Origin: a virus
Taxonomy: Duplodnaviria; Caudoviricetes
Direction: 5' to 3' (one strand)
DNA: 52,099 nt
Virus record (IMG/VR): IMGVR_UViG_3300048858_000105
Span: 1-52,099 of that record
Shown here: piece after piece, positions 2,551-52,099 of the stretch
Layout of the letters: the number at the start of each line of letters is the position of its first letter
Numbering within the stretch: position 1 is the stretch's first letter
Translations under genes and position numbers: made by a program
Notes under the pieces: generated by a model
The model's input: the letters and a program-made list of their open reading frames with translations, nothing else
The model's database searches: none
Told to the model about the DNA's origin: nothing

Positions 2551-2707
2551 CCAGCCTCGCGCGCGAGCAGATCGCCGCGGGCGCCGGCCGCATCGACTAG
2601 CTCGTCGATCGCCGCACGCGGCTCAGTCGTGAACTGGCTACGGGTGAGGATCGCCGAGAGCTTCACGCCGAGCGCGGGGCGGTGTCGGGTGGGAGCGGCT
2701 CGGTCAC
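2551..2707 (-). pseudogene. Frameshifted, truncated paralog of the 991-1284 gene
   Basis: MTEPLPPDT/frameshift/LGVKLSAILTRSQFTTEPRAAIDELVDAAGARGDLLAREAG aligns with MTGPLHSDTILGVRLSAICTRHQFTTEPRAAIDELLATAGGRGDILAREVG. Its GTG overlaps the upstream stop. Confidence 0.8.
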
Positions 2708-3087
2708 GAGGCGAGCGTCATCGTCGTGTACGTGGCGGCCAGCAGGAATGCGAGAAGGGAGAGCACCAGCGCCCAGGCTGCCATCGGGCGCCGCCTGCGA
2801 GGAAGGAACAGCGCCACGATCGCCCCTACGCCGGTGAACATCGATAGCGCCCCAGCCGCTGCTGGGACCGAATACGACAGCAAGACAGCAAGGAGGGCGC
2901 AGAAGAACGACAGCGTTCCGAGCAGGTTGCGACGCTTGGGTGGATTCACGATCGTCACCGCGACCGGAGCGCCGGCTGGCGGAGGCGCGAACGGGCCCCA
3001 AGCTGATCCGTCCCAATAGCGCTGAGCGCCGCTGGTCGGGTCGGCGTACCACCCCGCAGGCGGCGGGCTGTTCGGGGGCTGCGTCAT
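2704..3087 (-). CDS. DUF2510-domain membrane protein
   Basis: PPAGWYADPTSGAQRYWDGSAW motif followed by three hydrophobic segments. Confidence 0.85.
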   Translation of the reverse strand: MTQPPNSPPPAGWYADPTSGAQRYWDGSAWGPFAPPPAGAPVAVTIVNPPKRRNLLGTLSFFCALLAVLLSYSVPAAAGALSMFTGVGAIVALFLPRRRRPMAAWALVLSLLAFLLAATYTTMTLAS

Positions 3088-3228
3088 GCTCGCTCCTGCA
3101 TCTCTAACGGGCGGGACATCGAAGTGTCGGCGAGCGACATGCGGCCGATCGTAGCGCCAGCGCTAGGGCCTGACGAAACCGCCCCTCCCGGGGAGCCAAG
3201 TTGCTGCGTGGGGCGGTAGCGCGCCGAG

Positions 3229-3648
3229 TCACAACAGGGGAAGGATGATGAACTCTCCCGTGATGAGTCGGCTGACGAACTCGACACTGGCGCCGACTCC
3301 CACAGCGGCACTACCGATGCCTTCGACGACGAGGGCCCAACGCGGAAGGCCCGGCTCGTCATCCTTACTCTCCGGCCATCTGACCGACTGCCGAGAGGCG
3401 GCGAGGTGCAGCATCAGGATCCCGCTGAGGCCGAAAGCGACCGCCATGAGCAGCAGGAGCGCATTGATGAAGCCTTGAACGGCGTCGGGACTTTGGAAGG
3501 CGCCGATCGCCACACCAACGCCCCAGATCAAGAACGCGACAATGATGCCCGCAGCGGTGCGCGTCGCGACATCTCGCCAGAAGGACTCCTCGCGTACCCA
3601 TCGCAGAGGCCAGAACCGTGGTGGCGTTGGGCCGACGTCGCTCGCCAT
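3229..3648 (-). CDS. Membrane protein (about 3 TM), moron
   Basis: Three hydrophobic stretches; TAGCTT lies 6 nt upstream of the ATG. Confidence 0.75.
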   Translation of the reverse strand: MASDVGPTPPRFWPLRWVREESFWRDVATRTAAGIIVAFLIWGVGVAIGAFQSPDAVQGFINALLLLMAVAFGLSGILMLHLAASRQSVRWPESKDDEPGLPRWALVVEGIGSAAVGVGASVEFVSRLITGEFIILPLL

Positions 3649-3754: not shown

Positions 3755-4192
3755 TCAGTTCTCTGTCTTCTGAAAGCCGATCTCGCCGCGCTGAATGATC
3801 GGCATCAGAACGGCCTGGCCGAAAACCCGCTGCGTCAAGTCGGCGACCGCCTGACGCACATAGGGAACAAGGGCCATGATGCCGACTTCAGTGGCGAACT
3901 CGAGCCTCGCCTGCTCCGGCATGCTGAACGGCTGAACAGCCTTGTATGTCGCCGCAACGTCGACGAGCACGTTCCCGATGCCCAAGTACAGGCGGGTCGC
4001 TAGACGAACGCCGATCTCATCATCCTCTTGGCGGATCCGCATAGAGTAGGAAGGCTCGACGTTGTCCGGCAGCTGCGTCTCCTCGCTCTCCTCGTCGACG
4101 TCGGCCTGAAGCGAGAAGTATTGGATGTCGATCAAGTCGACGCCAAGCTCGAGAAGCTCACGGGCGGAGGTGACGATCCTCGGGTCTGTCAC
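3755..4192 (-). CDS. SecB-like chaperone (145 aa), TAC component
   Basis: Acidic, four predicted beta strands, then EFATEVGIMALVPYVRQAVADLTQRVFGQAVLMP, matching the SecB pattern (L.PY.R..I...T......L.LP). GTGA overlap with the upstream stop; RBS GAGGAG. Confidence 0.85.
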   Translation of the reverse strand: MTDPRIVTSARELLELGVDLIDIQYFSLQADVDEESEETQLPDNVEPSYSMRIRQEDDEIGVRLATRLYLGIGNVLVDVAATYKAVQPFSMPEQARLEFATEVGIMALVPYVRQAVADLTQRVFGQAVLMPIIQRGEIGFQKTEN

Positions 4193-4773
4193 GCAGCGCT
4201 CCTCACTGGGGCGCCCCAACCACGACGCGTGGGCACGCGCCGACTCGGATCGATACGAACGCGAGGAGCGCCTGTCGAGGTTAGCCACCCGTCATGGCGG
4301 GCGTTCCGCACGTGTGCAAGAGCGCCGTTGAGAGCGGTTATCTCCTCACGCGACATGGGCGGATACTCCTCGAGCGGCACTTCGCACATCTCTGCCCAGG
4401 CGAAGACATCAGGCCATGCCCAAACACGGTTGCCTCCGACGTGCTGGTAGTGAGCCGGGAACCCGCCCCGGCGTTTACCGACCGTCCAGAGGCGGGCGGT
4501 CTCACGAGACACCTCAAAGCGCTCGGCGATTTCCGCCACCGTGACCAGTTCCAGTTCGATGCGGACAACGTGGGCACCGATCGCACGGAGGTCTGACGTC
4601 AGCTGATTGAACGCGTCGATCGACGAGGGTGCGGCAACATCAGCGTCGACGGTCACGATCCCACCCGACATGCCTACGACGGCCGCGTACTCCAGACGAT
4701 CGAGCGCAGCGTTCTGCTCCTCAGAATCGAGGTCAAAGCCTTCGACTACCGCGATCAGCGAGTAAGTACTCAT
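4189..4773 (-). CDS. Putative antitoxin: N-terminal alpha/beta domain, HTH, and unstructured ChAD-like tail
   Basis: LVTVAEIAERFEVSRETARLW HTH and FP...VWAWPDVFAW. The C-terminal ~35 aa are R/P/G-rich with two GW motifs. Lies between a toxin-like and a SecB-like gene. Confidence 0.75.
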   Translation of the reverse strand: MSTYSLIAVVEGFDLDSEEQNAALDRLEYAAVVGMSGGIVTVDADVAAPSSIDAFNQLTSDLRAIGAHVVRIELELVTVAEIAERFEVSRETARLWTVGKRRGGFPAHYQHVGGNRVWAWPDVFAWAEMCEVPLEEYPPMSREEITALNGALAHVRNARHDGWLTSTGAPRVRIDPSRRVPTRRGWGAPVRSAA

Positions 4774-4826
4774 GCTCACCAGCTCCCTCTACTACGTACC
4801 ATGTTGTCACATGCCAACACCGGGTG

Positions 4827-5075
4827 TCACCACTGCCGCCTGTCCGGCGCGCAACCGTGGGGGCACCGCCTGGCCTTCGCCCAGATCTTCCGCGCCGTGT
4901 TCCGCCCAGTGCCGGCAACATTGATGCGGCACCCCTCCCGGGAGTGCTCACTGCAAAGCAGATAGCCAGCGGGATGCGCTCGAGCCCCGTCCGTCTCGTG
5001 GTATTCCCAGGAGAACTCACGCTCCAGCGCAGCGATGCAGTCGCGTGCGTCATGGTCACTCGGCAGTCCGCCCAA
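4827..5075 (-). CDS. Putative HicA-like toxin (82 aa, Cys-containing)
   Basis: Alpha-beta-beta-beta-alpha pattern: helix, WEY, AHP (His at the HicA GSH position), LLC, CRINVAGT, basic final helix. TTG start with RBS GGTGGAG. Confidence 0.65.
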   Translation of the reverse strand: MGGLPSDHDARDCIAALEREFSWEYHETDGARAHPAGYLLCSEHSREGCRINVAGTGRNTARKIWAKARRCPHGCAPDRRQW

Positions 5076-5110
5076 CGTCTACGCTCCACCCTGTCTTCCC
5101 GTCGTGGGCC

Positions 5111-5116
5111 ATTCTA
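5111..5116 (-). promoter_or_regulatory. Candidate -10 box (TAGAAT) for the TAC operon
   Basis: TAGAAT on the minus strand, about 35 nt upstream of the toxin start and downstream of the late terminator. Confidence 0.5.
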
Positions 5117-5165
5117 TGTTTCCTCCCAGACACCTCTGCCGGGGGGTCAGGGCTCGCTATATCGC

Positions 5166-5257
5166 GAAAGAACCGCCCCTCCCGGAGAGCCAGCCCACGG
5201 TCGACATGAGGATCATCATGTCGACCGTGTGTTACTAGCTCACCCAGGAGGGGCGGT
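5166..5257 (-). terminator. Long-stem terminator closing the late/lysis operon
   Basis: Outer stem ACCGCCCCTCC/GGAGGGGCGGT; inner perfect 14-bp stem (5196-5209/5216-5229); followed by TCTTT on the minus strand. Confidence 0.7.
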
Positions 5258-5278: not shown

Positions 5279-5647
5279 TCAGAAGCGCGGCACGACGGGT
5301 CGGTAGCTGCCAGCCTGCTTCGGCTGCTCGTTCGGGACGATGTAGACCCCGATACCGGCGAACGCGGCCACGCCGATCTGCAGCCATTCGGCGGTCGTGA
5401 TGCCTCCCGTCAGCGCGGATGCGACGGCGATGAGGCCGGCGACGATGAACGCCGTTGCCGACTTGGCGTACGCGCCGGGCCCGGTGGGCAGGTTCGGCAC
5501 GAGGTAGGTGGCGATCGCGCCGACGCCGACGATGCCGACGTTGACGAGCTCCTCCGGCGACACGACGTCGTCGGTGAGGGCGGTGACGAGGACGCTCACC
5601 GCCGCGAGCGCGATGTAGATCAGCGCCTTGGCGTACTGCTTGATCAT
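5279..5647 (-). CDS. Holin (about 4 TM)
   Basis: Internally duplicated hydrophobic protein (AKA...VYLVPN twice), last gene of the lysis cassette; ATGA overlap with the upstream gene. Confidence 0.75.
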   Translation of the reverse strand: MIKQYAKALIYIALAAVSVLVTALTDDVVSPEELVNVGIVGVGAIATYLVPNLPTGPGAYAKSATAFIVAGLIAVASALTGGITTAEWLQIGVAAFAGIGVYIVPNEQPKQAGSYRPVVPRF

Positions 5648-5979
5648 GGCTTCTCCTTCGAGCGGGGTTCGATGTTCTGCGGGGTGCGACGCCACGAGCG
5701 CCACAGGGTGATCGCCAGGCGCCAGATGCCGGCGGCGATCGTGATGTACACGGCGAGCCGGATCCACTCGCGCCCGGGGTACTCGCCGCCGATGAGTCGC
5801 GTGAACGTCGACAGCCCGGCCCACAGCACGAGGGCGATGACGAAGTACATGAGGGACTTGCCGGCGGCGGTCTTGCGCCAGTTGAAGAACGCCGCGTACG
5901 AGATCGCGAAGAAAACCGCGCCGATCATGGAGATCGTCATGATGACGTCGCCGAGGTCGTAGAGCAGCTGCTCGTTCAT
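5644..5979 (-). CDS. Membrane protein (3 TM), putative holin or lysis accessory
   Basis: Hydrophobic segments; translationally coupled within the lysis cassette. Confidence 0.75.
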   Translation of the reverse strand: MNEQLLYDLGDVIMTISMIGAVFFAISYAAFFNWRKTAAGKSLMYFVIALVLWAGLSTFTRLIGGEYPGREWIRLAVYITIAAGIWRLAITLWRSWRRTPQNIEPRSKEKP

Positions 5980-6583: not shown

Positions 6584-7348
6584 TCAGTCCTTCTCGACGG
6601 CGATGCTGTGCTTGTCCAGCCATGCACGCATCTCGGCGCGCACTGCCTTCTCGACCGTTGCCCGGTCGACGCCGCCCTTCGCCGCGAGCAGAGCGGACAG
6701 GGACGCGATCGCGGCGTCCTGAGCCTCCAGGCGGCGGGCGTTGTTCTCGTTCTGCCGCTTGAGCGTCACGAAGTTGCTGCGGATCATCGCGGTGAGCTCG
6801 CCGTCCTGCCGCTCCCGCTCCTCGGTGCTGATGGCCACGGCGTCGAAGACGGCCTTGGCGTAGTTGTGCGTCATGTCGAGCTTCTTGCGCTCGTCAGCGT
6901 CCATGTCTTCCTCCTCGTATCGCCAGACGCCGTCGGCGCCCTTGTTCAGCGGAATGTGTTCGCCGCGGTGGTTGTCGCGGCTGATGTCGTACTCGAAGTG
7001 CCAGGGCTCCATGAGCGTGTAGACGCCGTTGACCCAGCGGTAGACGGTGCGGATCCACCCGTGGTCGGCGAGAATCTCCACGCGCTGCTCGTTCGTGTCG
7101 ATCGCCTCGCCGCGGCAGTGGACCGACATCTCGGCCGGGTACCCGATCGGCGCCCAGGGCCCGGTGCCGTTGAGCCACGCCTGGTACTTCCGGTGGTTCT
7201 CGTTCGCCTTCTCCGGCGTCCGATACCCCTCGGTGATCTGCTGCGGGTGCCCGATCTGCCGGTCGATGCGGAAGATCGACCGCGCCGCGTCCAGCGCGAG
7301 CTTGCCGCGGCCGTGGCCGAGGTCCGCGAGTTCCAACGTGCCGCCCAT
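6584..7348 (-). CDS. Endolysin, M15-type zinc peptidase
   Basis: GYR, SVHCRGEAID (SxHxxGxAxD) and EPWH motifs; positioned before the holins. Confidence 0.9.
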   Translation of the reverse strand: MGGTLELADLGHGRGKLALDAARSIFRIDRQIGHPQQITEGYRTPEKANENHRKYQAWLNGTGPWAPIGYPAEMSVHCRGEAIDTNEQRVEILADHGWIRTVYRWVNGVYTLMEPWHFEYDISRDNHRGEHIPLNKGADGVWRYEEEDMDADERKKLDMTHNYAKAVFDAVAISTEERERQDGELTAMIRSNFVTLKRQNENNARRLEAQDAAIASLSALLAAKGGVDRATVEKAVRAEMRAWLDKHSIAVEKD

Positions 7349-43413: not shown

Positions 43414-43778
43414 GCGTCGCTCCCGTGGTCGGCGTACAGCTGGCGTTCGGCGCGCTCCGTGGCGACCTCCGAACGCAGGGCGTCGGCGACCGCGGCGCAC
43501 CAGCGGAGGCGCGCCTTCTTCGCTTCGACGGTGGATTCCGCGGCGCGGAACTCCTTGTGCAGACGGTGAGCCTCGGAATCCGCGTCCGCCATCCGCTCGG
43601 CGGCGGCCTGCGAGAGCTTCTGCTCCTGGTGCTTGGCCGTCTCCATGACCACCGCCCGGCGGTACTCGAGGTCTGCCTTCCGGGCGCCGTAGGCGGTGAT
43701 CGCGGCGTCGAACTCCTTGATCTCCCGGTCCCAGCGCATGAGGTGATCGTTCAGGCGCTGCTGTGTGGGGAGCGGCAT
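43410..43778 (-). CDS. Coiled-coil protein following the recombinase
   Basis: Helical, 122 aa; coupled to the recT stop. Confidence 0.7.
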   Translation of the reverse strand: MPLPTQQRLNDHLMRWDREIKEFDAAITAYGARKADLEYRRAVVMETAKHQEQKLSQAAAERMADADSEAHRLHKEFRAAESTVEAKKARLRWCAAVADALRSEVATERAERQLYADHGSDA

Positions 43779-44755
43779 CAGGGGCTCACCTCGCCCCGTG
43801 CCACCGCGGCCTCGTGCTCGGCGGCGATGCGCGCTTCGTACTCCGCCTCCGTCTCCTCGGCGAGTGTCGCGGGCTCGGAAGCGGCGGGCGGCTCAGCCGC
43901 CGCTGCCTCGGTCGGCTCATCGGAGACGATCTGCGCGTCCTCGGTGATTGCCTCCCGAGAGAGCACCCCCGCACGGGCGAGCCAGGCGGCCTTGAGCGTG
44001 TCCGTCGCCTCGTCGGCATCGACCATGCGGACCTTGATCTCCTCGAGCTCGTCACGCGTCGTGGCGGCCGTGATCAGCGCCGCCCAGTTGGTGCCCGGCT
44101 CAGCCGCGGCCGACTCATCGACAGGCGTTACTTCCAAGCGCATCTCGTCGTCCGTGTAGATCCCAGACAGGTCCTGCGGGAACGCCTTGCGGAGGCCGAG
44201 CGCCTCGGCGCACTTCGCGAGCTGGCCGGGGCCGCGCTGCTGCCACATGGCGGTGAGCGCGCCCTTCTTCGTGTACTGGGCGTACTCGTCCCAGGTGGCA
44301 ATGCCGACGGCGGGCTTGTCCCAGTCGTGGCGGTAGACGTTGACTCGCGCCGCAAGCGGGTGTTCACCGTGCAACGCTTTGACGAACACGGGGACCCACT
44401 CGCCCGACGCGGTCAGCCACTCGGGGGCGCCCTGGCCGGCGTACTTCTTCGAGCGCTCGGCGATCACGCGGAACCCGTCGATCGCGGTTTGGATCGACCA
44501 CTCGAGCCCGTCGGAGCCGAACCTGCCGATGCAGTAGATCTGCCGCGCGAGAGGATCCAGGCCCGTGCGCTCGCACGTGTGCAGGAACCGAGCCACGACC
44601 GGACGGGGCGCCAGGACCTTCTCGCCCCGACGGTCGCCGTACGAGTGGGTGAAGACCAGGCCTGCGGCCTCGATGATCGCCTTCTCCTCGGCGGTCCACG
44701 CTTCGGTGTCGCTCGTGGTGGGCAGAGTCGCGAGGGACTTTCCCGCGGTGTTCAT
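43778..44755 (-). CDS. RecT/Bet-family single-strand annealing protein
   Basis: TGLDPLARQIY.I.R...IDGFRVIAERS...W...QLAKCAEALGLRKAFP..LSG.YT.DEM. Confidence 0.92.
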   Translation of the reverse strand: MNTAGKSLATLPTTSDTEAWTAEEKAIIEAAGLVFTHSYGDRRGEKVLAPRPVVARFLHTCERTGLDPLARQIYCIGRFGSDGLEWSIQTAIDGFRVIAERSKKYAGQGAPEWLTASGEWVPVFVKALHGEHPLAARVNVYRHDWDKPAVGIATWDEYAQYTKKGALTAMWQQRGPGQLAKCAEALGLRKAFPQDLSGIYTDDEMRLEVTPVDESAAAEPGTNWAALITAATTRDELEEIKVRMVDADEATDTLKAAWLARAGVLSREAITEDAQIVSDEPTEAAAAEPPAASEPATLAEETEAEYEARIAAEHEAAVARGEVSP

Positions 44756-45378
44756 GCGAATGCTCCTTCGAGAGCGCGGGCCGCGTCGAGCGCGGCGAGG
44801 ACTTCGTGCGCGATCGGCACGATCAGGGACGTCGCGGCCACGATCTCGGGGTGGTCGCGGTGGTAGACGAGGGTCTGCGGGTCGCGGCGCAGCTCCCACT
44901 CGGGCATGTCGCCGGATCCGCCGCGGATCAGCTCGCCCCACACCCACTCGGCGTACGCCGCCTCGGGGATGCAGTACATCTGCCACGCAAGCTGACGGAT
45001 CTCGTACGGCGTCGGGCGGGTGATGACCTTGAGGTGCTTCGCCTTCGTCTCGACGATCACGAGCTCGTCGCCGACGCGCTTCGTGCCGTCCACCGTCGCG
45101 GCGAAGCGGCGGTTCTCCGGGTGGTGGATCAGCAGGCTGTTCGCTTCGGCACCGGCCCACGCGAGGAGCATCGGCTCCCACCGGTTCCCCGATCGCGTCG
45201 AGTCGTTGCCGTGGAACTCGCGCGGAGCGAGGATCTGCCGGACGTACGTCTCGACGCTCGACGTCTTCGCGAACTTCCCGGCCGTCGACGAACCGATGGC
45301 CTTGTCGTGCTGGCTCAACCAAGACTCCCGGTCGTTCGAGTCCGCGAGCGTGCGGCCCAGGACCGCGAGCGCGCTCAC
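44752..45378 (-). CDS. YqaJ / lambda-exonuclease-family recombination nuclease
   Basis: W......IGSS, G...EP, ATVDG, VETK and Q..WQM motifs. Confidence 0.88.
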   Translation of the reverse strand: MSALAVLGRTLADSNDRESWLSQHDKAIGSSTAGKFAKTSSVETYVRQILAPREFHGNDSTRSGNRWEPMLLAWAGAEANSLLIHHPENRRFAATVDGTKRVGDELVIVETKAKHLKVITRPTPYEIRQLAWQMYCIPEAAYAEWVWGELIRGGSGDMPEWELRRDPQTLVYHRDHPEIVAATSLIVPIAHEVLAALDAARALEGAFA

Positions 45379-45629
45379 AGCCCCAGCTCCTGCTCGATCA
45401 GCGAGACCAGGTAACCCTGCGTGCGAGCGTTCGGCGCACGAGTTCCGAGGAACGCGATCAGGTTCGCCGTGCGCTGCTCAGCGCCCAGCGCAAGCTGCGC
45501 GTGCAGGCGAGCCTTGTCGAGCTGGATCACCGCGAGCATGTGCGGTGCCATCTCGACGCCGTTGATGATCGAGTCCGCTGCCTTCTGCAGCTGCTGGGCC
45601 CGGTCGATGTGGTCGACTCGTTCACCCAT
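45375..45629 (-). CDS. Hypothetical protein
   Basis: A.LAL..EQRTANLIA motif; coupled. Confidence 0.7.
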   Translation of the reverse strand: MGERVDHIDRAQQLQKAADSIINGVEMAPHMLAVIQLDKARLHAQLALGAEQRTANLIAFLGTRAPNARTQGYLVSLIEQELGL

Positions 45630-46876
45630 CAGGCGGGCACCTCCTCGGCGAGGGCGCCGTCGCGGATGGTGAATCCGATCAGGCGGGACTCGTCGCGGTC
45701 GCGCTCCATCAGGACCGTGTAGCCGCGCTCGTCCGCGAGGCCCGCGATCGCCTGCAGGGAGTCCGCGTCGAGCAGGTCGCCGTCCCGGATGATCACCAAG
45801 CGGAGCTTCGGATCCCCGGCGGTGGCGATCGCGAATGCGATCTTGCGGCGCTCCGCCGAGTTGACCTGGCCGAACGGGATGCCGTTGAACGTCACGCCCT
45901 CGTCGGTCACCGACAGGCCCGGGACAGGGAACTCCGCCGCTGCGAGCCCGGCTCGCTTGTCCTGCTCGATCCGGTCGAGCTCGGCCTGCGCCGCCTTCTG
46001 CGCCGACGTGTAGTCGCTGAGCTCCGCGGCGAGCTTGCCGTACTCGCGCGCCTGTCGCCGCGCGCGATTCGTGTCCTCGATCGTGCGCAGCTGCTCACGC
46101 AGGGGCTCCACATCGATCGGCTCCGGCTGGATCTTGAGGGTGCGCCACGCGCGCTCCTGCCGGTCCGCGGCCTCCTCGCGCCGACGCTTGAGCTCCTCGA
46201 TCTGCCGGTCGAAGTCCGCGACCGCGTTGGCCGCGTCGTCGTACTGACGGCGAGCCAGGTCGCGGGCGCCGTTGCTGGCCTCCGCCTGCGAGATCTGCTG
46301 GATGATGTCGGCCGCCGACACCTCCTCAGTGGAGTAGCCCGCCGGCGGCTTCTGCAGGGACGACAGGGCGCCCTGCAGACGCTTCACCTCACGGCCAGCC
46401 TCCAGCCGGCGCTGCTCGGCGGCGAGCTTCTCGCGGGCGATCGCGTCCAGGTCGAACGGCAGCGTCACCTTCTCGAGCAGGATGTCGCGCTGCTTCTTCT
46501 CGTCGAGGTTCAGGAACGCGACCGGATCGAAGATCGCTCCGCCCGTCAGCTCGGCGACCACGTCGGACGGGCGGGAGTATCGCGCGCCGTCGAGCGCCTC
46601 GACCTGCAGCGCTCCGGCCGTGCCGTTCTTCTTCCATGTGCGGATGATCCGCAGGCCGAGCTCGTCGTCGACGTACTCCGCGCGCGCCTCGTCGGCGCCC
46701 TCACGGATCGGCTTCGGCGTGAGCTTCGTGCCCTTCGGGTCGAACAGCTCGGCGATCGCGTCGATGAACGATGACTTCCCCGCGCCGTTGCCGCCAGCGA
46801 TGAGGACGAGGCGGCCCGAGGGGGACAGCTCGATGTGGCGGACGCCCTTGTAGTCGGTGACCTTGAAGGTCTGCAT
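45629..46876 (-). CDS. SMC/Rad50-like AAA ATPase
   Basis: GGNGAGKSS Walker A, long coiled coil, degenerate signature and Walker B (IIRDGDLLD). Confidence 0.88.
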   Translation of the reverse strand: MQTFKVTDYKGVRHIELSPSGRLVLIAGGNGAGKSSFIDAIAELFDPKGTKLTPKPIREGADEARAEYVDDELGLRIIRTWKKNGTAGALQVEALDGARYSRPSDVVAELTGGAIFDPVAFLNLDEKKQRDILLEKVTLPFDLDAIAREKLAAEQRRLEAGREVKRLQGALSSLQKPPAGYSTEEVSAADIIQQISQAEASNGARDLARRQYDDAANAVADFDRQIEELKRRREEAADRQERAWRTLKIQPEPIDVEPLREQLRTIEDTNRARRQAREYGKLAAELSDYTSAQKAAQAELDRIEQDKRAGLAAAEFPVPGLSVTDEGVTFNGIPFGQVNSAERRKIAFAIATAGDPKLRLVIIRDGDLLDADSLQAIAGLADERGYTVLMERDRDESRLIGFTIRDGALAEEVPA

Positions 46877-50146: not shown

Positions 50147-50612
50147 CAGCACCCGAGCGTCACTGCTCGACATGGCGGATGCGCTCGAGGTGCGGATCGT
50201 CTACGCCGACCTGAGCCACCTGGAGCGCGATGGCGACTACTGCTTTCGCACGAACACCATCCGACTGCAGGAAGGCATGGCGCCCAGGCTGTACAACTCG
50301 GTCCTAGCGCACGAGCTTGCTCACGCGGTCTTTGGAGACTCGCGCAGCATGTTCGGGCCTATCAACGCCAAGCAGGAGCGACGTGCCGACGAGTGGGCCG
50401 CGCTTCGGCTCATCGATCTGGACGCATACCGGGAAGCCGAGCACCTGCGCGACGGACATATCCCGTCCATGGCCTACGACCTCGGTGTGATCGAGGACAG
50501 CGTCGAGGCGTACCAGCGAGTTCTGGTCCGCGTAGGTGACACGCTGTACCTCCAGCCACGGATGGGCGCCGGTCAGTGGGCCGAGCGCATCGCCCTCGCA
50601 GAACCGGCCTAG
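50139..50612 (+). CDS. ImmA/IrrE-family metallopeptidase (candidate antirepressor)
   Basis: LAHELAH (HExxH) and QERRADEWAA..LI motifs. Confidence 0.92.
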   Translation: MRDSTRASLLDMADALEVRIVYADLSHLERDGDYCFRTNTIRLQEGMAPRLYNSVLAHELAHAVFGDSRSMFGPINAKQERRADEWAALRLIDLDAYREAEHLRDGHIPSMAYDLGVIEDSVEAYQRVLVRVGDTLYLQPRMGAGQWAERIALAEPA

Positions 50613-50617
50613 CGAAG

Positions 50618-52099
50618 ATGCGGGGCTTGAGCACAAACGTGCAGCGGCTTCCTCTCCGCCAGCGTCGCGGGCTGGCGTTGATCCGTGTATCGAAGGAACG
50701 CGACGGCATGACGTCGCCCGACGTGCAGCGCAACGCGATTCAGCAGTTCGCCGACTCGCAGAACATCGAGGTGATCGACTGGATTGAAGGTCTAGACGAG
50801 TCGGGATCGGACAGGAAATCCGCTTGGTGGCCGCGGCTCGACCAGTCCATCGACCGCATGCAAGCTGGCGAGTGCGACGTCATCCTCGTGTGGCGATTCA
50901 GTCGCGTCGGCCGCCAGCGCCTCCGCTGGGCGATTGCCCTCGACCGAGTCGACACGCTCGGGGGGATGATCCTCTCCGCAACCGAGCCGATCGAGTCCGC
51001 GACAGCCTCCGGCAGATTCACGCGCGGCATGCTCGGCGAACTCAACGCGTACCAGGCGGAGCTGATCGGCGAGATGTGGAAGGAGACCCACCAGCGCCTG
51101 CGGTCGCAAGGCCTGCCGCACGGGGGCCACCATCGATTCGGATACCAGCGCGTCGACGGCAGGTTCGAGCCGGACCCCGTGACCGGCCCGATCCTTGCGG
51201 AGATCTACAGACGCGCGCTCAGAGGTGACGGAGCGGGGCGCATCACACGGTGGCTGAACGAGCAGGGCATCCCGACGACCCAGGGGAACCCGTGGATCAG
51301 CACGAACCTCTATCAGATGCTCGACAGCGGGTTCGGAGCTGGCCTTATCGTTCATCGACCTGGCTGGAAGAACAAGCGACTCCCCAAGAGCGAGTGGAAG
51401 TTCTATCCCGGCGCCCACGAAGCGGTGATCGAACAGGGAGAGTGGGCGGCTTACTGGCAACGACGGCTGTCGCTCTCTGAGCCATCCCGCGCAATCGAGG
51501 CGCGTCATCTGCTAACCGGTCTCATCCATTGCGCCGACTGCGGCGGACGCATGAACGTCACGCATGGGCGCTACCGCTGCATCCGAGCCGCGCGCGTTCG
51601 CGGAACCGGCCGAACGCAACTCTCGATCGAAGCGCCGGCCGTGGAGCGGGCCGTCGAGCGGTGGGTGATGAGTCTCGCCGATGACACCGACGCGCTCCTG
51701 GACGCGCGAGCAGCCACCGCAAAGCGGAAAGTCCGGTCGGTGAACGATGCTGAGGCGATACAACGCAAGATCGCCCGCCTCGAGGAGAAGATGGCGGCGC
51801 TCACCATCCAGCAGCTCGGGGACAATGCGATCCCCGAAGCGGCGTACCAGGCGACGATCAGGAAGCTCGACGCCGATCACGCCAGCCTCGCTGCACGACA
51901 GCAATCCGTGGAACTCGTGAACGCTCAGCGAGAGGTGGACGTGAGGGAGATCGCGACACACCTTCAGAGCGCGTGGCGCTCGCTCGCTACGCACGAGCGC
52001 CGGCAGGCGCTCCGAGAGGTCGTCTCTGCCGTGCTTGTGAAGCCCACCGGCCAAGGGGATCGAATCCTCATCGTCCCGCGCTGGGAAGCGCGCGGTTAG
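50618..52099 (+). CDS. Large serine integrase
   Basis: IRVS catalytic Ser, S...Q, D..SG, RFSRVGR; recombinase domain; LLTGLIHCADCG zinc ribbon; coiled coil. Confidence 0.96.
   Translation: MRGLSTNVQRLPLRQRRGLALIRVSKERDGMTSPDVQRNAIQQFADSQNIEVIDWIEGLDESGSDRKSAWWPRLDQSIDRMQAGECDVILVWRFSRVGRQRLRWAIALDRVDTLGGMILSATEPIESATASGRFTRGMLGELNAYQAELIGEMWKETHQRLRSQGLPHGGHHRFGYQRVDGRFEPDPVTGPILAEIYRRALRGDGAGRITRWLNEQGIPTTQGNPWISTNLYQMLDSGFGAGLIVHRPGWKNKRLPKSEWKFYPGAHEAVIEQGEWAAYWQRRLSLSEPSRAIEARHLLTGLIHCADCGGRMNVTHGRYRCIRAARVRGTGRTQLSIEAPAVERAVERWVMSLADDTDALLDARAATAKRKVRSVNDAEAIQRKIARLEEKMAALTIQQLGDNAIPEAAYQATIRKLDADHASLAARQQSVELVNAQREVDVREIATHLQSAWRSLATHERRQALREVVSAVLVKPTGQGDRILIVPRWEARG

Follow-up and report, generated by a model that had tools for sequence, protein, structure and literature searches.

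The stretch of DNA analysed here, referred to as the window, is the IMG/VR provirus record IMGVR_UViG_3300048858_000105, 52,099 bases long, and the element under study is a cassette of three co-oriented minus-strand genes, which we call g1, g2 and g3. The cassette probably represents a tripartite type II toxin-antitoxin-chaperone (TAC) operon, an assignment that draws on its gene structure, on the SecB fold and homology of g3, on co-occurrence across related loci and on a model in which g1 binds g2. The putative toxin gene, g1 (4827-5075, minus), starts with TTG and encodes 82 residues (isoelectric point, pI, 8.4), with five Cys at positions 13, 41, 49, 71 and 75. The putative antitoxin gene, g2 (4192-4773, minus), encodes 194 residues from ATG 4773 and stops with TGA at 4189-4191; its open reading frame (ORF) opens at an alternative GTG at 4779, and the 194-residue form is the one on record. 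The g2 C-terminal end is HDGWLTSTGAPRVRIDPSRRVPTRRGWGAPVRSAA, identical to the tail quoted in an earlier, sequence-only reading of this DNA. Finally, g3 (3755-4192, minus) encodes the predicted SecB-like TAC chaperone (145 residues, pI 4.3), and its GTG start at 4190-4192 overlaps the g2 stop by 4 nucleotides, generating the GTGA at 4189-4192. The three co-oriented genes, the lengths of 82 and 194 residues, the GTGA overlap and the tail which that reading had described are all present in the sequence.

Shine-Dalgarno-like GGAG/GAGG motifs are located 4-10 nucleotides before all three starts, the TTG of g1 being preceded by GGTGGAG at 5084-5090 (minus). The sequence-only reading had also placed a candidate -10 box downstream of the late terminator. 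TAGAAT is read at 5111-5116 (minus), approximately 35 nucleotides 5' of the g1 start, and actinobacterial -10 boxes fit TANNNT. The terminator-like hairpin with a T-rich tail (5175-5190, minus) lies 3' of the holin and lysis genes and 5' of the cassette; it is weak alone and not significant, since the hairpin scan gave 2 overlapping sites vs 0.9 ± 1.1 in shuffled sequence. A sigma-70 two-hexamer promoter scan gave 0 sites, and an operator search of 5060-5200 found neither direct nor inverted repeats. The three genes are more than chance ORFs, because each has database homologues: three for g1 (56-78% identity; 3 matches among 3 candidates), nine besides itself for g2 (10 matches among 453 candidates) and, in a word-indexed search, seven besides itself for g3 (8 matches among 69 candidates). 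Note that the g1 of the window is absent from the proteins on record, apparently because gene callers passed over it. Such a small gene is easily overlooked, and the start codons of the ten g1 genes examined are mostly non-ATG (5 TTG, 3 GTG and 2 ATG).

Profile and model comparisons clearly place g3 as a SecB-like chaperone of the TAC type, closest to M. tuberculosis Rv1957. A 148-sequence g3 profile matched Rv1957 (5mtw_C) among the PDB sequences with E = 7.8e-10, the only other row having E = 0.95, and a profile of 8 sequences retrieved the same single chain (E = 0.027). The AlphaFold2 (AF2) model of g3 has a mean predicted local distance difference test (pLDDT) of 96.0 and a predicted template-modelling score (pTM) of 0.88. 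In Foldseek, ranks 1 to 4 were the four chains of 5MTW (E 2e-7 to 7e-7, TM 0.67-0.73), followed by the SecB proteins of E. coli and H. influenzae (E 3e-5 to 1e-4), with 22 matches in total at E ≤ 0.001. The earlier description of g3 as SecB-like is therefore borne out by both fold and profile. Of the 668 cluster representatives that the 8-sequence profile collected at E ≤ 0.001, 335 reach E ≤ 1e-10 and 21 reach E ≤ 1e-30. Routine annotation would miss most of this clade, since only 4 of 148 g3 relatives touch the Pfam SecB family.

The sequence-only reading had suggested a survey asking whether antitoxins without a SecB neighbour also lack the tail. The related loci came from genome contigs (3), from metagenome contigs (5), from 401 Microbacteriaceae genomes searched with g1 (8 matches, 5 strong) and from 401 class-level genomes searched with g2 (11 matches). 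Each locus was scanned with hidden Markov models (HMMs) of g1, g2 and g3, and the g2 C-termini were read. In the scan of contigs with the g2 profile, 3 of 68 pattern matches were confirmed in genome contigs, 5 of 489 in metagenome contigs and 0 of 129 in viral contigs. At 11 loci (the window, L004, L005, L006, L007, L008, L012, L050, L053, L054 and L055) the g2 protein continues 35-59 residues past the last helix and a g3 homologue lies immediately downstream; L008 is counted here, its g3 being cut by the contig end. At eight loci (L002, L003, L010, L011, L014, L056, L057 and L059) g2 ends 9-17 residues after this helix and no g3 is present, only 345 nucleotides being available 3' of g2 in the case of L056. 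At the remaining two, L051 (1006-2286) and L052 (1015-2307), a different C-terminal domain of approximately 150 residues replaces the tail of the g2-like protein, and there is no SecB-like neighbour. Tail and g3 are hence both present in 11 loci and both absent in 10, with 0 of the 21 scored loci discordant. Omitted from these 21 were L009, which has the tail on a contig that ends 85 nucleotides later, L013 and L049, which duplicate L002, and L058, whose genome is flagged as unpublished. The whole genome holding L002 had no g3-family match (0/1). The order g1-g2-g3 is found in the window and in L004, L005, L006, L007, L008, L012, L050 and L053. This all-or-none pairing of the tail with a SecB-like gene fits the signature of chaperone addiction, and the answer to the suggested survey is yes.

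The g2 protein can be divided into three regions. Its acidic N-terminal domain (residues 1-75; 4549-4773, minus; pI 4.05) is the predicted toxin-binding domain; it is compact in the ESM Atlas, where its structural neighbours are unnamed protein clusters only. Residues 76-135 (4369-4548, minus) form, according to the family matches, a helix-turn-helix (HTH) of the AlpA/excisionase/MerR type. The match of this HTH to Pfam HTH_17 (E = 0.0028) falls below the Pfam cut-off, and the g2 profile reached the AlpA-family structure 8c3t in the PDB with E = 0.18. Residues 33-130 also matched positions 33-131 of the 174 in the PADLOC model PDC-M06B (E = 4.2e-7). Component B is the only part of the PADLOC candidate PDC-M06 with a counterpart here, since g1 and g3 match no PADLOC model, and the name 'PDC-M06' was not found in a literature search. 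The third region, residues 136-194, is basic (pI 11.6). It includes the C-terminal tail (residues 160-194; 4192-4296, minus), a putative chaperone-addiction (ChAD) element that comes after the conserved helix ALNGALAHVR. The tail carries two conserved pairs, G162-W163 and G185-W186; all 10 of the close homologues compared have G162, W163 and W186. As described in PMC6377645, the key residues of the M. tuberculosis ChAD are a Trp, an Arg and a Tyr (W108/R110/Y114) in an extended peptide. The g2 tail resembles this element in chemistry and not in sequence. The earlier claim that g2 is an HTH protein ending in a tail thus stands, with the addition that the tail was found only where a SecB-like gene follows.

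A model of g1 in complex with residues 1-135 of g2 supports binding between the two proteins. Its ipSAE values were 0.82, 0.82 and 0.80, vs 0.01 for the best of three controls. Among solved complexes, 58 of 80 attain this ipSAE mark, compared with 2 of 110 among mismatched pairs. At least 97% of contacts are common to the runs, and the partner pLDDT was at least 85. The predicted interface pairs g2 residues 15-45 with g1 residues 33-35, 38 and 46-72. Since it includes g1 33-35, the acidic domain of g2 would cover the g1 face that carries His34. HicB neutralises HicA in this manner. No sequence-similar solved complex was found for g1 or g2 in the PDB profile searches.

Several of our results weigh against the TAC reading. 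On its own, g3 had no match in Pfam, PHROGs, PADLOC or NCBIfam; the Pfam SecB family (PF02556) did not match it at E ≤ 1, and the four relatives that this family did match, out of 148, were those at E ≤ 0.01 (best 0.0011). The calibration of the complex score is only roughly valid with our own alignments. The best family matches of g2 are PHROGs labelled 'excisionase and transcriptional regulator' (phrog_2620, E = 3.3e-8; others at 4.1e-4 and 9.3e-4), and when the g2 family was compared by hhalign with 17 HicB neighbours of canonical HicA, only 17 columns of the HTH aligned (P = 0.015). L003 keeps g2 without g1, the homology between L003 and L014 beginning at g2. Finally, the 21 loci cannot be counted as so many independent events. 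A tree was built from 22 rows of the g2 core after removal of the tail columns; on it, the label of three-gene TAC or two-gene toxin-antitoxin (TA) form needs 4 changes (bootstrap range 3-5). The number of independent switches is uncertain, because the strongly supported branches force only 1. Set against these points are the SecB-homologous gene in the operon, the pairing of tail and chaperone, the toxin-antitoxin-chaperone order and the modelled g1-g2 contact, and on balance the identification of a TAC-type operon by the sequence-only reading still holds.

That reading had further described g1 as HicA-like. By our results g1 appears only remotely HicA-like, in its modelled topology and its alignment register, and it fails the HicA family's own test. 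The AF2 model of g1 (13 sequences, pLDDT 80.4) has an alpha-beta-beta-beta-alpha topology. When it was compared by VIA-align with 48,161 chains, no row had Z ≥ 5 and the top rows were tied. These included HicA3 (4p78_D, Z 4.3, 64 aligned residues, root-mean-square deviation 3.2) and B. pseudomallei HicA (6g26_E, Z 3.8), together with 5yrz_D (Z 4.4), 1whz_A (Z 4.7), double-stranded RNA-binding domains (dsRBDs), T7 Gp1.2 and VRR-NUC. We take 5yrz and 1whz to be HicA-type, which the VIA-align output does not say. Re-alignment to 786 chains ranked HicA3 (4p78_C) first, with Z 4.5 over 64 of 66 residues and a root-mean-square deviation of 3.1, many dsRBDs being placed below it.

Sequence profiles gave a similar picture. 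The reference set consisted of 26 canonical HicA proteins from Microbacteriaceae genomes, in which canonical HicA (PF07927) occurs in 27 of 151 and g1 in 8 of 401 (5 strong). By hhalign, 13 close g1 sequences aligned with this set over 20 columns (P = 0.017). With the 8 distant relatives added, the resulting 21 sequences aligned over 56 columns across the whole domain (P = 0.0067, probability 5.7%), placing g1 His34 on the His of the HicA G-S-H motif. The 8 distant relatives alone gave P = 0.0036 (probability 9.1%). When PF07927 was run against these 8, one gave a full-length, sub-threshold match (12.7 bits, E = 0.14). H34, G37 and C41 do not vary among the relatives (21 of 21), most of which also retain C49 and C71-x-H73. 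The canonical Microbacteriaceae HicA proteins are without this Cys pattern. Sequence conservation suggests that C41, C49, C71 and H73 may form a structural metal site not present in canonical HicA.

On the other side, g1 matched no family in Pfam, PHROGs, PADLOC or NCBIfam at E ≤ 1, which includes HicA_toxin itself (PF07927, cut-off 27 bits), and the g1 profile had 0 matches at E ≤ 10 among PDB sequences. Foldseek against the PDB found nothing for g1 at E ≤ 0.001, and HicA3 came only 32nd (E = 2.9). All the Z scores are under 5 and tie with T7 Gp1.2, VRR-NUC and PafA, and all fall below the Z of 8 that is the VIA-align caution line. The hhalign probabilities are only 2.7-9.1%. The best ESM Atlas feature score (0.83) was to unnamed clusters and is a lead only.

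If g1 is a toxin, we lean towards HicA-like ribonuclease (RNase) chemistry. It is rather unlikely that g1 is instead a metal-dependent nuclease or a target-blocking protein whose dsRBD-like topology is convergent. Such a toxin would account for the lack of any significant sequence or Foldseek link to HicA, for the ties of VRR-NUC (4qbn, Z 4.1-4.3) and T7 Gp1.2 (Z 4.7) with the HicA rows, and for the invariant C41 and mostly kept C49 and C71-x-H73. However, HicA chains recur in the top rows (4p78, Z 4.3-4.5; 6g26, Z 3.8), the profiles can be aligned along the entire domain in the HicA register, with the two His residues paired, and HicA_toxin is the only Pfam family that any relative touches over this domain. 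Moreover, the toxin-first order and an antitoxin made of a binding domain plus a DNA-binding domain mirror hicAB, as is well established.

A g1-like ORF lies directly 5' of g2 at 17 of 22 loci by HMM and at 4 more by eye (L051, L054, L055 and L059). Toxin decay was seen at L010, where g1 (1534-1755) has a premature TGA after 69 codons, at L055, where g1 (1994-2323) is split over two frames, and at L003, where 3806-4000 holds no g1 before g2. The distant g1-like toxins of L004 (3253-3942), L050 (2181-2879), L053 (563-1315) and L054 (616-1290) carry an acidic, coiled-coil-looking C-terminal extension of approximately 140 residues that is not found in the g1 of the window; all four are in three-gene loci.

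The cassette can be compared with the TACs already described. As occurs with the M. tuberculosis HigB1-HigA1-SecB^TA system (Rv1955-Rv1956-Rv1957; 5MTW), the toxin gene comes first, the antitoxin second and the chaperone last. Rv1957 is both a homologue of g3, at only about 19-20% identity, and the best structural match of g3, and the antitoxin has a C-terminal extension with Trp and Arg, comparable to the ChAD W108/R110/Y114 described in PMC6377645. Unlike that system, however, g1 does not have the HigB/RelE fold, g2 is not of the HigA/Xre type, and the g2 tail is without sequence similarity to the M. tuberculosis ChAD. The M. tuberculosis TAC lies on a chromosomal island, whereas the present cassette is prophage-borne.

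A second comparison is the HicAB-SecB TAC of Methylomonas methanica MC09 (Mmet-TAC; Bordes et al. 2016), for which PMC5105189 reports experimental validation. Its toxin is HicA-type and dsRBD-like, a fold that g1 may share, and is encoded 5' of the antitoxin; the antitoxin has a C-terminal ChAD, described in that paper as transferable, to which the g2 tail would correspond. However, the HicA and HicB of Mmet-TAC are canonical, whereas g1 and g2 fail the HicA and HicB tests, and the conserved Cys3-His cluster is a feature of g1 that sets it apart. The HicB antitoxins of TACs use a ribbon-helix-helix, according to PMC3581621, whereas g2 uses an HTH of the AlpA/excisionase type. Canonical HicAB itself appears to share with the cassette a small basic toxin encoded first, the alpha-beta-beta-beta-alpha topology that is modelled for g1, a His before strand 2 and an antitoxin in which an N-terminal domain for toxin binding, as predicted for g2, precedes the DNA-binding domain, and the tail-less two-gene forms (L002, L010, L011, L014, L056, L057 and L059) are organised in the same way. 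The differences are the absence of significant sequence similarity, the Cys cluster of g1 and the other HTH type of g2.

The E. coli TACs HigBAC (NT1F31), CmdTAC and MqsRAC resemble the cassette in being prophage-encoded and made of three genes. Their toxins are different (the HigB RNase, the CmdT ADP-ribosyltransferase and MqsR), and their hosts are proteobacterial. The logic proposed for these systems in bioRxiv 10.1101/2024.02.24.581848 and PMC11618068, which we adopt here, is that the ChAD and the structural proteins of a phage are rivals for the SecB-like chaperone.

Since the TACs already published include ones with HigBA, MqsRA and HicAB pairs, one HicAB-SecB TAC having been validated (PMC5105189), the earlier label of a 'candidate new anti-phage system' was overstated. 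The tripartite logic and the chaperone family are already known. What sets this locus apart is a putative TA pair outside all the family libraries searched, the Cys3-His of its toxin and a chaperone clade that escapes standard models. In its account of TACs, the study of Sala et al., 2012 (PMC3581621) mentions an unclassified 'HTH-like' community of antitoxins, and also toxins without a known function, which 'could represent new TA families'. The supplementary lists of TAC antitoxin communities of Sala et al. and Bordes et al. may already contain g2 relatives. The sequence-only reading knew of no characterised actinobacterial prophage TAC of this type, and our literature searches found no characterised actinobacteriophage TAC.

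From these comparisons the following mechanism can be proposed. g1 would be a small, basic, dsRBD-like (HicA-like) toxin with an invariant His and a Cys3-His cluster, most likely an RNase. The acidic N-terminal domain of g2 is predicted to cap the toxin face carrying His34, and its AlpA/excisionase-type HTH probably autoregulates the operon. The basic, Trp-bearing tail would make g2 dependent on g3, as the co-occurrence suggests. By homology with Rv1957, g3, presumably a tetramer, would bind this tail and shield g2 from aggregation or proteolysis. The trigger may be titration of the chaperone. A superinfecting phage could, for instance, do this through its structural proteins, as proposed for HigBAC and CmdTAC of E. 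coli. Loss of g2 would then follow, and g1 would arrest the cell. The toxicity of g1, its RNase activity, the binding of the tail by the chaperone, the trigger and the role in defence are the steps that we infer.

The cassette is probably a moron, situated between the lysis genes and the prophage end. The minus-strand lysis block runs down to approximately 5280, with the cassette directly downstream. It has a Phage_holin_2 gene at 5644-5979 (E = 1e-24) and an endolysin-like ORF at 6584-7348 that resembles endolysins of Microbacterium phages at the DNA level (of 20 matching phage records, 19 are Microbacterium). As expected for an acquired moron, the GC content at third codon positions is lower in the cassette genes (0.69-0.80) than in the endolysin gene (0.94). 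A large serine recombinase is encoded at 50576-52099, the opposite end of the prophage. The nearest named homologues are from Microbacterium lacticum and Microbacterium aurum, and sequence similarity suggests that the prophage host is probably a Microbacterium.

Restriction-type genes are neighbours of the relatives in 3 of 3 chromosomal loci inspected: the g1-g2 relative adjoins a GmrSD_N+HNH gene at L002 (2430-3596), a ResIII helicase with a nuclease-like end at L003 (857-3805) and an Mrr_cat endonuclease at L004 (5198-6628). These neighbours suggest that the three loci are defence islands.

Among 50,697 phage records, g3-like genes are present in 12 (7 Gordonia phages) and g2-like genes in 4 (2 phages), and a tblastn search of the same records with g1 gave no match. 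In Gordonia phage Agueybana (MZ274304, L060), downstream of the immunity repressor and co-oriented with it, are a g2-like gene and a SecB-like ORF. The g2-like gene, gene 45 (E = 3.5e-18), has a long tail, and the SecB-like ORF (3079-3513, 144 residues, E = 4e-27) overlaps its stop; the record annotates gene 44 only from 3250. Between the repressor gene 46 and gene 45 lies an unannotated ORF of 96 residues (2143-2433). It shows a GW...GH motif, a resemblance to g1 that is by eye only, since it had no match to the g1 HMMs at E ≤ 1. The module recalls the cI-adjacent HigBAC of E. coli described in bioRxiv 10.1101/2024.02.24.581848. Agueybana also has an HTH gene (42) followed by gene 41, a weak match to the g3 family (E = 2.9e-5), at 4256-5109, which may be a second TAC-like module.

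Gordonia phage Suerte (MN428057, L061) carries genes 39, 38 and 37 at 1500-2899, between its immunity repressor and its integrase. Gene 39 encodes 176 residues with no family match, gene 38 an Xre-type HTH_3 protein (E = 3.3e-10) and gene 37 a SecB-like protein (g3 family, E = 2e-26) that overlaps gene 38 by 4 nucleotides. They are annotated as hypothetical or HTH proteins and look like a TAC with a different TA pair. A SecB look-alike has been noted in Gordonia phage Wrigley, in a genome announcement (PMC9670969) that draws no link to TA systems.

By association, the chromosomal and phage contexts favour a defence role expressed in the lysogen, and we slightly prefer an anti-phage function to one in addiction or stress. 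It is unlikely that the cassette is a TAC whose role is post-segregational or anti-excision addiction stabilising the prophage, or a stress-responsive growth switch. Such a role would be in keeping with the first TAC described, presented in PMC3581621 as stress-responsive in M. tuberculosis, with the position of the cassette at the prophage end, where stabilising morons also occur, and with the orphan g2 of L003, the truncated g1 of L010 and the frameshifted g1 of L055, which amount to ordinary decay of the TA type. However, all the E. coli prophage TACs whose testing is reported in bioRxiv 10.1101/2024.02.24.581848 and PMC11618068 gave phage defence, the chromosomal loci have restriction genes as neighbours, and the phage relative adjoins the immunity repressor.

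Large serine recombinases need an accessory directionality factor. That g2 is such a factor or a phage regulator, with g1 as its metal-binding cofactor and g3 as its folding chaperone, is very improbable: the excisionase/regulator PHROGs are indeed the best named matches of g2, HTH_17 and the AlpA family match it weakly, and the prophage does carry a large serine recombinase, but the cassette lies some 45 kb from it, the chromosomal relatives have restriction genes as neighbours and no integrase in the parts inspected, tail and SecB pair in an all-or-none manner, the closest known relative of g3 is a TAC chaperone, and the predicted contact with g2 takes in the g1 face that carries the conserved His.

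With the cassette read as a TAC, several implications follow. TACs are a recently recognised class of phage-sensing defence, on which the mechanistic work is all in E. coli and M. tuberculosis, and the g1-g2 pair is recognised by no current toxin, antitoxin or defence model, the partial match of PADLOC PDC-M06B to g2 aside. TACs are probably under-counted in Actinobacteria, because the SecB-like clade (668 representatives) largely escapes Pfam SecB. Close relatives with and without tail and chaperone constitute a natural experiment that isolates the addiction element, and the modules beside the immunity repressor of cultured, non-pathogenic Gordonia phages make defence assays and trigger mapping feasible. 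Metal binding or redox sensing by the Cys3-His cluster, if it occurs, would be novel in a HicA-like toxin. A broader proposal, which we advance only tentatively and think doubtful as a whole, is that g1 and g2 represent an unnamed actinobacterial TA family (a metal-binding Cys3-His offshoot of HicA-like toxins with an AlpA-HTH antitoxin) which has switched more than once between two- and three-gene forms and, together with the SecB clade missed by Pfam, provides a widespread, unannotated superinfection defence of temperate actinobacteriophages, cultured Gordonia phages included, that senses structural proteins via the chaperone.

Finally, some features of the window lie outside the cassette. 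The only public run containing this DNA is a DNA run labelled as soil metagenome, with no RNA run listed, and a tRNA scan of the window found none. Directly 3' of the cassette are genes for two small predicted membrane proteins (2704-3087 and 3229-3648, minus), one of which carries DUF2510 (E = 2.4e-7); they may be further morons, involved for example in superinfection exclusion, or host flank. In the early region of the prophage, within 43778-46876 (minus), an ORF of 514 residues contains a RecT-family recombinase domain (E = 2.3e-22) and adjoins an ORF of 415 residues for an AAA/SMC-like ATPase.

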